64,000 bases of DNA from Narcine bancroftii (taxonomy: Eukaryota): positions 18,972,001 to 19,036,000 of the forward strand of contig NC_091474.1 in NCBI RefSeq assembly GCF_036971445.1, read 5' to 3'. The notes under the pieces are model-generated. The model ran no database searches, was not told the origin of the DNA, and saw only the letters and a program-made list of their open reading frames with translations. A program made the position numbers and the translations under genes. Each line of letters opens with the position of its first letter. Position 1 is the first letter of the stretch. Shown here in pieces: positions 39,301-45,300 of this stretch.

Positions 39301-42300
39301 TGAATATGGCAGACAATTAAAGTGAGAGGAGGAAATGTCAAGAACTCCACTCTTTGATTGGAGGGCTGAACAGAATTGCCGTCAAACCCAGGGGTGCTGT
39401 GCTAATTTTTTTAGATGCTGGAACTGACAAAATGCCTGCCATTTCCTTGATTCATTCTCTCTCTGAAATGAGCAGGTACACCAATTTAAGAGAGAAATGA
39501 ATGAATAGGCCTTTTAATGTCAAGCACTAAACCAAGATGAAAGAAATATGAATTTCAGGGCCCCACAGAAATATAGTGATTAGTTTACAAGATTATAGCC
39601 TATCACTATATTTCACTGTGTAACTGGTACAGTAAAACATTTAATACCTAATTTAGTAATATGACAAAGTATTGCATGGTTGCTCTCACTAATGATCATA
39701 AAATATAACTCAATAAGTAAAGTGCGGTAATCATGCATTTTACCAATTTAAAATTAATTCACCAACTTCCCAAATGCACCAATGAGAAGCTTCACAGTAA
39801 TTTCCACAAAGGGTCAGGCGTAATGTTTTTGGGGGTCTAAAGCAACTTCTGTCCTGGTGTCATCTGCTGTCTGTGGTGGCGTACAGCACAGGATTGCACT
39901 GAACTAGAGGAGGTCCATGTAGTTTAACAAACATAAGTGCTGAAGCATGATTTACGAGCATTCTTGAGCATGTTGTTGTTATCAAATTCATATAACTGAA
40001 TCCACTCTCTCACTTAGTACTAATAGAAATAACTTGTGAACAGCTAAGTAATGGGCGTAGATCTCGGGTAACGCAGCATCCACGATCCTCCACAATCTCT
40101 GGAGGCATTTATTAGAGGAAGAAGAAATCTTAAACCTCTTATAGAGAGATTATATTGCAGCTTCTTCAGGATTAGGTGGTATTTCAACAGGCCAGTAGCC
40201 TTTATCAAGGAAGCATTTCATTTAGCAGGAATTTATACATATTTTGAGGTTCAGAAGTTTGAGAACCTTTCAAGGATGTCATAAACACATGGTGCTGTAA
40301 ATTGTTTTATGACTAGTAAGAAACTATAGATAATTGTTGTTGCTTGTTGAGGTAATTTCTCCAAATTTCCCCTTTTTAATGGCCTCTTGAGCTTTTAGTT
40401 TTTGTACCAGGTTGCTCTTTAGTCCGTGCTCAGTTGGATCACTGTTTGCAGAAACACTCTGACAGTAAACCAAGTTCATGCATTGTGTTAAACATTGAGC
40501 TAAGTCCAATAGAAACTGTTCTAGAGTCTTTTCAACCGACCTTCATAGGTTCTTCTGTCACTCCCAGATTTTGTTTCATCTTCATTGCTTTTTCAAAATG
40601 AAAAATTTTGCCGCACTGCTGAAACTGTTCCAAAAGAGCTACCGACCCACCTGGTGCCAAAACACAGCCTATTTTGCAAATTTGTTGTTCTAGTTGAGAG
40701 GTACATTTAGATGGTTCCTTTTGATTTAGAGGTGATCGACTGTAAACAGAGTACAATTTGTATATAAATGATTGAAAATTATTAATACCATGAACTTCTC
40801 TCACTGAATCACCCACTGCAAGTTCTAATCTGTAATTTAAGACAGTGCCAAATTATCACCTCAGGTTAATATTCCTTGAGAATTGTAGCAACACCATATT
40901 TGACACCAAGCATTTCACTCGCTCCATCACTAGCATATGCTACAAGGTTCTGTTTCAAGTGAGAGTAATCAAACCTATGGTCATTGAGACAGTTCTGATC
41001 AGGCAGTTCAATGAGGTCTAAAGCCATAAAATGGGGACCACCTTCCTTATCGCTTTCACATTTCAAATAAACTATTAGTGTAGTCTTGATGCTTAGGTTT
41101 GTTGATTTATCAATGTGAACAGAAATGTATATTTGCTGGCAAATTTTCTTTTTCATATTAATGGCTATGTGATTATTTCTGTTGCACTAGTTTGGGAATG
41201 GAGTCCATTTCCAATGTCAATAACATTTTTGTTTTGAAGTTCCAGTAAGCCAACGTATGGTCTGCCATTCTGAGCTAAATAATATGCAGAATGAAAAATT
41301 TGAACAAGGTGCCTTTAGATGTGAACCATTCATGGTGTCACAATTTTCCAAGAGCATCGCCACGTAGAGCAGCAATGTGAGCCTTTGACAGTTTGCGATC
41401 ATCAATTTTTTTCTGACAGACTTCAAGTGTGTTCTCCAATTGGCTCCACAATAAGATACTTGATACATCTGCCATTCATATCCTTAGAAGTGAAAAATGT
41501 CAGATGGCTTATGTTTGCACCTATTTATTATCCTTGAAATCTAACCAGGGATAAGTTTCCTTTTTCTTCCACATTTCTTCTGTCCAAATGCTTGAAGAGG
41601 GACACAAGCATGACTTCGAAGCACCATTCAGAACTACATTTGGACCCAGTTAGAAAATATAACCTAGAGGCAAGCGAAACACAGCTTTTGTCACTCACTG
41701 TATTCACTATCAGTCTCTTGTATGTTATTCTTGTTACACTCCTCAGCTTGTTTACGAAAGTTAACATTATCTCTCTCCATCTAAGCCTTGATCTCCTTTC
41801 TTCCCTTTCCCATCAGAGAGCTACCCTTAGTCCTCTCCTGTCACTTATCAGCCTCTTTCTCTTCTACTCTCCCATCTGTATCCATCTTGCTTGTGTGCCC
41901 CCCCACCCCCCCCCACATTTTTTAAGTGTACCTGTTTTAGAAAATTTCTGAAACTTTACTACTTCTGGATGCTGCGTGACCTTCTGAGTTTCTCCAGCAC
42001 TTTTGTGTATTGCACTCGACTCCAGCATTTGCAGATTTTCTTGCTTTCGTATAGTCTTACCAAACCTGACTTGGGAGAAGAACCGTGTGGGCCACTTTTA
42101 CATTTCCCCCCAAATCGACCAAATGGCCACTTCCTTGGATCATAAATCCCAGACTGGAAGAGAACGAGAAAATAACGGGAGGACCACCCATCATTAGCAG
42201 AGAATCTGTACTCAAACTGCACCAAGACCCTCCCGGCCTAGTTGACCTGACAGTCTTCCTCGCGGGCAAACACATGGAGATGGTGTTCGAGTGTGGACAA

Positions 42301-45300
42301 TCCTACAGGAACACAAGTCAGACCTTGACCGTCACATTCACAGCACCATGGCTGCTGGACAAACGTACTAGACTCTTGTAATGTCTGAGTACGTCCCATT
42401 ACTTAGGCAGGATGGACCCAGAGGAGGTGGTACAATGGTATGAAGATCTGAGGGATTGTCTATGTCCCACCTGCCCCACTTCATCCACAAATCAAACACC
42501 ATAAACTAAAAGCAAAATGGTTTATTTCCTGTTTGACTGTTGAGTTATTTTTCCCCTTGGGGAAAAAAGAAGTCACCATCTGTGTAAGAGGACGCTTGTT
42601 GACCAGGTCCGCGGCACCCGCCACTGGATGCAGGGAGCCTCTTTCCTTGCCATCTTCTTTATCAGCTTTTTCCAATCAACCCTGTCGTCGAACTTCTGCT
42701 TCGACCTTTTTGCTCTCAGCATCTTGAGGCCAAGAACAGAGAAGCCGCCAGCCTAACTCCTTCCATGGCCCTCACTATGCCCCTTTCAACTCTGACCAAC
42801 GTGGGTGGATCCTACCAGGATACCAGTGGATAATTCCTGCACAAATTTGATTTATACCACCCATATTGCAAGACAAAGTGAACAATCCTCCCAATTTGTT
42901 TGTTTTTCTGTAACCTCGTAGTAGCATGAATAAGGTGAACCCTGCCTTGATGTGATTGACTGCTCAGGCACCCAATCAGCATCCGGCTCTCCCCCCAGCC
43001 CGCCACCTCATCCCGGTGGGGACGACCCATCAGGGTGAAGCCAGTTGTTGTAGCAGCTTCAGGTCTCGACGTGACGTATCCTTCAGCTATTGAGGGCTTC
43101 ATTCATGTACCCAAGCCCAACGAGGAAGGGTTTCAGGACAAATTTTTCAGGAAAATGAAGGAGAATCCATTTGTGCTGATTGGTTATTAGTGGTATTTTT
43201 ACCCTGCCAACCACCACCCTCTCTCCACATATCTGAACCCAACAACTGCTTCCATAAAATCTCCTTTATTTAATATGAGGTTGCTGTTAAATTCTGTACT
43301 AGTTAAAATTCTCGACTTGTTTATTTTGCCTTTTCTTACAGAGGTGCTGGAGCACTGCTCTGGCAGCACTACACCCCTGGTAAAACTTTTGTGTGGCTTG
43401 AGTGTTTTCAGCCATTTTCCACTGGAAGTTCCCATTGTTTGATTTCTGTCATTGCAGAAACCAGCTTTGGTCTAATATGGTTTGCAGTCATGAGATTGGG
43501 AAGCATTTGAGAGCACTGGCTACTGCAAATGTTTTGAGACCAGTTAATTTCTCACTATAGAAGGCAGATTTGTGCTCTAGAACAAGCTATGCTTTTCATC
43601 AGACTCTCGTAACAGTTATAACACTGATGTGCACAAAATGGATATTGCCCAGACCTTTCCTGTTTGCAAAAATAGGACCAATTCATTTGGGACATCAATC
43701 CACTTTCAATCATCGGAAAAGATTTAGAAGTGTTGTTGAAACTGCAGTCAAACAGCAGTTGCTTTTGAATAATTTGTGCATTCATGAACAATTTGAGTTT
43801 TGTCATTCATAGCTCCAAACCTGATCAAAACCTTATCTAAGTATGGACCAAAGTGCTGAACTTGCAAAGTAAACTGAGAATAAAACTTTTTGATGTCGAG
43901 GCAACTTTGGCAGAGGAACCCTGATAAAACTTAAGTCAGTCGGTGTAAAAAGATTATGATCATGGTTGTTGGAAGTCGATTATCTCAACACCAAGATGTC
44001 ACTACCAGTATTCTTCAAGGCAGTGTGCAAGCTGCATCATCAGCTATTTCATCAAAGGTTTCTTTCCCACTCCCTTTCCACTATAATATCAGATGTGAGG
44101 ATGTTTCAAGATATCTCCGATTCAGAATCAGAATTTGACATGAAATTTGCAGCAGAATCAGTGTAAACATTCATATTATAACCATCTTACAACATACATT
44201 TTAATTAAAAAAAAAATAGGAGTGCACGAAAAGTAAAGCAGTTTCTTTGGTTCATTGATTATTCAGCAATCTGATGGCAGCGGGGAAGAGGCTGTCCTTG
44301 TGCAGCTGAGTGATCGTCTTTAGGCTCCTATACCTTTCCCCGATGGTAATAGAGTGAAGAGGGCATGGCCTGGGTGGTGGGGGTCTTTGAGGATGGAGGC
44401 TGCTTTTTTTTTTAAGACACCGCCTACTGTAGATGTCCTCAATGGAGTGAAGTCTGGTGCCTGTGATGTCGCAGCCCATTCTAGCTCCCGCTGCCCCCAC
44501 TGTCTGAAGTTGTGATCTCTCAGTTCCCTGACCGCGGATCCTTGCCCTGGCCAGAGGCTCCTAGGGGCCGGCTGCCCACCTATTAGAGCTTCTGATGCCT
44601 GACACCCTGGCCATAGACTCTCTGCGAGGCCCCAGTTGCCTGCTCATCTGATCTCATGATGTCCTGAAAGTGGACTTAGCATCCAGTCCTGGCCATCCAA
44701 GCTTCTGATACCTTGAACAACACAGGTACTTCCAGTGGTCAAAATATGACCCATGTAAAATTTGGTCCCACCCCCCAAATTTGACCCAAAAAACTTGACT
44801 ATTACATGAGGATATATGGTATGATTCTGTCATGTCTGCTGTAAGTGCATTATCTGATGTTAGTTGAGATAAACATTGCAGATATTGTGAATTTACCTTT
44901 CAATTTTGAGCTCATGTGTGGGGCATCATGTTGTATTGAAAGTTGCGTTCAGTGGTGGGCAGGTGAACTTGAGTTTGCAGAACTTTTAAGTTTTTTTTTT
45001 CTTTATCGCTTCTTTCAGAAAATAAACAGACGACTGCATTTGTCCAAAACAAAGCACAGTAAATTTAATGAGTCCGGCCAGCTTGCATTTTTCTATTTGT
45101 TTTCTTTTCTCTGGGGAAGCAGCATATTGACTGGAGTAAGTATATATTTTGATTCAAGTGTTTGCTTGGATAATTGTATAAAATAAAATGGCAATATATA
45201 AGGTTTTCTTTTATTTTAACAGGAGAAGTTTACAACAGATCCTACTCTCTTATGGGAAAAATATCCACATCTCCACATGTTGTAAGCATGTTTTTTCTAA

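Follow-up and report, generated by a model that had tools for sequence, protein, structure and literature searches.

A multicopy hAT transposon subfamily of Narcine bancroftii carries a captured HIGD2A/NOP16 promoter locus in place of its transposase start

A 64,000-nucleotide stretch of Narcine bancroftii DNA (assembly GCF_036971445.1, contig NC_091474.1, positions 18,972,001 to 19,036,000; the whole stretch is termed the window, and positions are counted from its first letter) contains a decayed hAT transposon on the minus strand (39389-43379), in which a genomic piece of the HIGD2A/NOP16 locus (41771-43184, minus) lies directly before a transposase remnant. The element is bounded by 15-bp terminal inverted repeats (TIRs) at 43365-43379 (5′ end, minus) and 39389-39403 (3′ end, plus), and the adjacent 8-bp target-site copies, at 43380-43387 and 39381-39388, match at six of eight positions. 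The native 5′ terminal segment (43185-43379, minus) is common to cargo-free copies. The remnant of a KIAA1586/ZNF862-like hAT transposase (39792-41770, minus) displays about 30 frameshifting indels and four stops in its 1966 aligned bases, and has 64 homologues, the top one 70% identical and named KIAA1586-like. Four natural transposase fragments, scanned by themselves against Pfam, gave no hAT match, and homologue P0002 passes PF05699, the hAT dimerisation domain. The element thus displays the features of the hAT superfamily, namely short TIRs, an 8-bp target-site duplication (TSD) and a transposase with, in its homologue, the dimerisation domain. Several transposase relatives (P0018, P0019, P0022, P0024-P0028 and P0051) also contain an OTU-like protease domain (PF02338). 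The family is large, with 163 DNA candidates (40 scored) and 562 protein candidates (142 scored), and no intact member was seen among the 142. The window element is one of 12 copies of a cargo-bearing subfamily, termed B, dispersed over eight contigs. Both ends were located in three of these copies, which present three different TSDs, with 8-bp flanks matching at 6/8, 6/8 and 8/8 positions.

The captured piece comprises a copy of the coding part of HIGD2A exon 1 (43032-43182, plus), the start codon of which is mutated in the window, an AT-rich 125-bp segment between both first exons (42805-42925, minus), and a copy of the coding part of NOP16 exon 1 (42622-42722, minus), with its ATG kept, a 6-bp deletion and a phase 2 end. 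These are followed by the NOP16 intron-1 donor (42620-42621, minus) and about 850 bp from the 5′ part of NOP16 intron 1 (41771-42621, minus), including an old short repeat (41955-42046) that the host intron has as well. The earlier note had described a NOP16-like first exon and a donor-like site on the strand of the transposase; the exon was confirmed at 42722-42622, and the donor is located 855 bp upstream of the transposase remnant. As a splice donor the site is GT in the 11 other copies and in the host, and has mutated to GC in the window copy itself. The description of the cargo as a captured NOP16 promoter and exon 1 was correct as far as it went and incomplete, HIGD2A exon 1, on the opposite strand, having been captured too. 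Across the 12 B copies the NOP16 ATG and the GT donor are each kept in 11, and an open phase-2 exon 1 with ATG remains in only five.

The source of the cargo is L027 (G000:C21:32861000-32868500), the single true NOP16 locus of the host genome. Its exon 1, which has the ATG and the GT donor, is 100% identical to the NCBI-named Narcine bancroftii NOP16 (P0065), exon 2 matches PF09420, and the join of the two exons is present in deep contigs of runs X1 and X3. HIGD2A exon 1, for which a PDB search returned HIGD2A (E 7e-9), is arranged head to head with NOP16 exon 1 at a distance of 191 bp. HIGD2A exon 2 matches PF04588, and the locus displays a CpG island with an observed/expected ratio of ~1.0. 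One X1 contig covers both first exons across the intergenic region (L027:1400-1840), which suggests either overlap between the 5′ ends or the presence of DNA in that run. Alignment of the window with L027 revealed three blocks extending from 43184 to 41772, with 72-78% identity and E-values down to 4e-164. They cover the first exons of HIGD2A and NOP16, the promoter region between these genes, and ~850 bp of NOP16 intron 1. The captured piece corresponds to L027 ~1388-4644 minus ~1.9 kb of host intron, NOP16 intron 1 of the host being longer than that of the copies by this amount. The stretch 41765-42480, which the earlier note took for later insertions, is captured NOP16 intron 1, common to the host (78% over 723 columns) and the sister copies. 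The 125-bp AT-rich segment is present in 12/12 B copies and absent from the host locus; its origin was searched for and not found, and an insertion or a host deletion would both fit. Position 3 of NOP16 is Arg in all 12 B copies, and Lys in the host and 13 of 14 outgroups.

Searches with several parts of the NOP16-like region retrieved the same set, consisting of the 12 element copies, window included, and L027. The latter lacks element ends, and the consensus of cargo-free (A) copies was unmatched in the 47 kb around it. A PF09420 profile search of the genome gave no match, its controls being equally silent, and the NOP16 locus was located by DNA matches. That the likeness to NOP16 arose by chance, or through late insertion of a processed pseudogene into one copy, might be argued from the 34-residue NOP16-like peptide of the window, which by itself has no Pfam or PDB match. 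This reading is refuted by a DNA match that covers the promoter, two exons and the intron of the true locus and by the identical junctions in dispersed copies, and retains next to no probability.

Both junctions were located. On the left, B departs from the element after ~200 bp; the capture stops at 2 bp of HIGD2A intron, and 2 bp of microhomology mark this junction. On the right, the junction had been considered obscured, and is resolved at transposase codon 6, with a 4-bp microhomology (41767-41770, minus) and with the native ATG and codons 1-5 gone. As B leaves the element at ~200 bp and rejoins it at codon 6, 1.1 kb of element interior, in which the transposase ATG and codons 1-5 lay, has been exchanged for 1.4 kb of host DNA. 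Alignment with other copies confirmed that the cargo occupies the place of the element's own upstream region.

The cargo-free state was defined from 29 copies retrieved by way of their transposase. Of these, 25 align over the native start region, and 16 of the 25 keep the ATG, whereas this region is missing from all 11 B copies having transposase sequence. The consensus of the 29 copies has, with CpG decay allowed for, one open frame of 742 codons, the start of which resembles the coelacanth homologue P0001. The earlier note had proposed that a housekeeping promoter drove the transposase in the active ancestor, possibly as a spliced fusion. In B, the element's upstream region and start codon have indeed given way to the promoter region, exon 1 and donor of the host. 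However, the cargo is absent from 29/29 of the autonomous-type copies retrieved through the transposase, an observation that the earlier note itself had named as refuting its proposal. With a native ATG and an open frame of 742 codons in the consensus of these copies, the active ancestor thus did not use NOP16. The B consensus keeps the entire transposase frame from codon 6, is 97% identical to the A consensus over the transposase and displays no fixed non-CpG change specific to B; the intact frame would be explained by a founder that came straight from the active element.

Subfamily B is a real multicopy capture (a Pack-hAT), probably non-autonomous. The analysis established where the cargo came from, where it joins the element on either side and that the native ATG is gone, as well as 12 dispersed copies with different TSDs, equal in age to the cargo-free ones. 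It displays host DNA between both ends, an unlinked parent locus, dispersed copies and breakpoint microhomology, the features of multicopy Pack-TIRs. One hAT founder would have swapped 1.1 kb of its 5′ interior, start codon included, for the 1.4-kb HIGD2A/NOP16 promoter locus. The retained intron and the 2-bp and 4-bp microhomologies suggest that this capture was one of DNA, through template switching in the repair of a break, which is the route proposed for animal Pack-TIRs (PMC8277862). The descendants were likely mobilised in trans by the transposase of intact sister elements, and the captured CpG island may have been rapidly methylated and silenced after insertion.

Non-CpG divergence from consensus is 7.5% for 11 B copies and 7.0% for the 29 others. 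A tree of 36 copies (>800 aligned sites) is star-like, with mean branch lengths of 0.076 (terminal) versus 0.0038 (internal), and B does not form a clade. Divergence between host and B consensus is 4-16% by region and 6% in the longest intron block, so that the capture dates to about the time of the burst. The transposase remnant is disrupted in every B copy, and the raw ratios of non-synonymous to synonymous change (pN/pS), uncorrected for transition bias, are 0.75 for B and 0.77 for the others. No sign of purifying selection on the fused frame was found, in a star tree that has almost no internal branches and gives little power. The captured island has lost 317 of 407 CpG sites-by-copy (78%), as the intron part has (180/222, 81%), and thus appears to have been unprotected from methylation after insertion. 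A codon 408 stop in three of eight B copies, accompanied by a second change in the same trio, was weighed as proof of spread after inactivation and dropped, since those copies do not group together in the cargo region and chance yields such trios. L037 and L040, ~285 kb apart on C11, have most of their substitutions in common and are probably a segmental duplication.

A second lineage of the family served as an internal control. Subfamily C comprises five of the 29 cargo-free copies, with a different 5′ interior, and a search with this interior gave 91 candidates, of which 40 were scored and 30 fetched. Eight of the 30 loci (L130, L132, L133, L135, L138, L140, L142 and L144) are a ~1.6-kb derivative with an intronless POLR3F fragment (PF05158; e.g. 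L142:942-1353, minus) and the 3′ end, and zero transposase. Six further loci have the POLR3F fragment with the 3′ end not seen, four have it together with part of the transposase, seven run on into native start and transposase, and five fit no class. The POLR3F fragment is thus held by 18 of the 30 sampled loci, and this cargo type is probably more abundant than the NOP16 type. The cargo, a C-terminal fragment of POLR3F/Rpc34 without introns, is RNA-derived, in a DNA transposon. Under the same mask the derivative diverges by 8.6%, compared with 6.7-8.1% for A, B and C, which makes it similar in age. Cargo-bearing copies without coding capacity have therefore spread in this hAT family, and the 12 copies of B can be accounted for without an enzyme encoded by B.

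C differs from A at eight sites in the 5′ part (in frame, one synonymous and three non-synonymous), and B has the A state at all three such sites covered. In the seven loci that continue into transposase (L120, L121, L122, L124, L125, L131 and L139), the C-type 5′ interior presents promoter-like motifs, which we take to be NRF1-, CRE- and YY1-like, and a donor-like site, followed by the native ATG and full transposase. No host source of the C-type 5′ region was found by two motif searches, and L169, a candidate for it, is another element copy. Searches of Pfam and PDB with open reading frames from the 5′ region of A likewise returned no named match.

An alternative is that the B founder was itself autonomous. 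Transcribed from the captured NOP16 promoter, exon 1 would be spliced to a phase-2 acceptor and give a predicted fusion of ~730 amino acids, in which a basic NOP16 leader precedes transposase residues 45-742 and the zinc-finger-like, catalytic and dimerisation regions would be kept. With the native ATG lost, no other simple route leads to protein. An unspliced B transcript would have 22 ATGs ahead of the first in-frame one. Exon 1 of the B consensus is 107 nt long and open, with a phase 2 end and GT, and of the 100 AG sites that lie downstream of the donor, up to the region of the first internal ATG in frame, seven give a long frame. One of the seven, with a fair pyrimidine tract, is a phase-2 acceptor of the kind the earlier note had envisaged (41664-41665, minus), with a predicted in-frame join to transposase residue 45. 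The AG that follows a pyrimidine tract near the junction (41747-41748, minus) is in phase 1 and would lead to a stop directly past exon 1. Acceptors were scored with a generic position weight matrix. The in-frame acceptor reached 2.4 bits, tied second of 94, and the top score, 3.1, was out of frame. The real HIGD2A acceptor scored 10.4, the real NOP16 exon-2 acceptor -1.5 and, among 377 unused AGs of host intron 1, the top 12 between 3.1 and 5.3; with a real acceptor so low and unused AGs so high, the matrix is unable to decide.

Several of these observations weigh against a non-autonomous B. The cargo sits precisely at the promoter position and reads in the sense direction; its ATG and its GT donor each survive in 11/12 copies. 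The acceptor at 41664-41665, with a predicted product of 731 residues, ties for first of the 100 AGs by pyrimidine count and exceeds the host's real NOP16 exon-2 acceptor in the matrix. No frameshift is common to at least three B copies. In a short burst no trace of selection is left under either reading, and the star tree and pN/pS are compatible with a briefly autonomous founder. Moreover, the natural partner of the host NOP16 donor is itself a weak acceptor in phase 2, and host-transposase fusions are reported to use acceptors pre-existing in the transposon consensus (10.1101/2020.05.07.082677). However, out-of-frame acceptors score equal or higher, and about one third of acceptors are in phase by chance. 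The in-frame acceptor is weak and consists of ordinary transposase coding sequence, already present in cargo-free copies (16/29 TAG) and not improved specifically in B. The selection signal is lacking, the CpG island has decayed, and transposase-less cargo copies have spread in the same family. A NOP16-like start occurs in 0/64 homologous transposases. An autonomous B founder is therefore unlikely, and the fusion is possible on paper and unsupported. The fuller proposition, in which a housekeeping promoter and first exon were swapped in for the native promoter and start codon and autonomy was kept via a spliced NOP16-transposase fusion, in a family whose 5′ interior was exchanged repeatedly, to at least three 5′ types, is improbable as well; if true, it would be a DNA-transposon counterpart to the 5′-end turnover of retrotransposons.

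One B copy, L024, is without most of the captured intron, so that NOP16 exon 1 lies ~30 bp from the transposase start (L024:2140-2170), imprecisely for a splice junction. Comparison of this copy with contigs of three same-species runs, of presumed RNA type, gave no link from the exon-1 donor to the transposase among the four joints listed, a result uninformative on the ancestor; the present copies are decayed. Contigs of the three runs on the window element were swamped by the short repeat in the intron. A protein search, weak in itself, for longer proteins with NOP16 exon 1 gave NOP16 only (four candidates).

A further alternative does without the fusion and assigns to the captured promoter an advantage in cis, open or transcribed chromatin easing access of a trans-acting transposase to the element ends. 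Twelve copies arose from one founder to which size gave no advantage, a second derivative presents promoter-like motifs in its 5′ region, and promoter-bearing captures in bat Helitrons are reported at higher copy numbers (PMC4224331). However, the CpGs of the cargo decayed as fast as elsewhere, B is a small part of the family (2/40 scored places in the DNA search, one of them the query) and chance suffices for such numbers in an early founder of a burst. Such an advantage is more doubtful still than autonomy of the founder.

The window element is located antisense within an intron of a gene with exons at 8935-9070, 35258-35377 and 45019-45135 (span 8935-45135, plus). The exons are presumably TRAM1/TRAM2-like; Pfam and PDB searches with the exon pieces gave no match. 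A minisatellite of 14 copies of a 48-bp unit (9326-9986) lies directly past the first exon. Young 5′-truncated copies resembling long interspersed nuclear elements, 91-99% alike and in both orientations, were found at 13541-14710, 34136-34873 and 1502-2011, and are assumed to be RTE-like.

Multicopy gene capture by TIR transposons is described as common in plants (PMC8277862), and an account of 100 animal reference genomes gives four cases of multicopy Pack-TIRs (Tan et al. 2021, PMC8277862). Pack-hAT-N8_XT, which carries the 5′ untranslated region of CAPSL in the frog, and Ssk-FB4 resemble B in having host DNA between TIRs and a parent locus without the element. Animal Pack-TIRs and B also have in common breakpoint microhomology, several copies with distinct TSDs and GC-rich cargo (PMC8277862). 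Unlike those described there, B carries the promoter region of two genes and keeps the transposase frame from codon 6, and the frog element, non-autonomous, has three copies compared with 12. Thus, copy number, the two-gene promoter region and a position replacing the start of an otherwise complete transposase are distinct in B. Bat Helitrons such as HelibatN3 favour, as in B, cargo consisting of promoter, first exon and partial intron, but they are rolling-circle elements, whereas B is a cut-and-paste hAT with its cargo directly before the transposase (PMC4224331). In SVA_F1, exon 1 of MAST2 has likewise taken the place of the 5′ portion of a mobile element, giving rise to a subfamily; that capture occurred at the RNA level, by splicing, in a retrotransposon, in contrast with the DNA-level, intron-retaining capture in B, where use of the new 5′ end is unsupported (PMC12593883). 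Host-transposase fusion genes splice a host exon to an acceptor in the transposon consensus, as an autonomous B would require, but there the element inserts into a gene and the fusion is fixed and conserved (Cosby et al., 10.1101/2020.05.07.082677). In B the exon is inside the mobile element and all copies are decayed. No published description of this element was found in a search to which repeat databases and the supplements of PMC8277862 were external.

Subfamily B represents a rare multicopy gene capture in a vertebrate, cartilaginous-fish genome, with source locus, junctions and ancestral state recoverable. Its hAT family displays multicopy capture twice in one vertebrate genome, as HIGD2A/NOP16 DNA with its intron and as spliced POLR3F. 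With its cargo in place of the first codons of a transposase that is complete otherwise, B provides a concrete construct for the question of promoter change by capture in DNA transposons. Even if the cargo is a mere passenger, a two-gene promoter with splice donors has been scattered to 12 sites.

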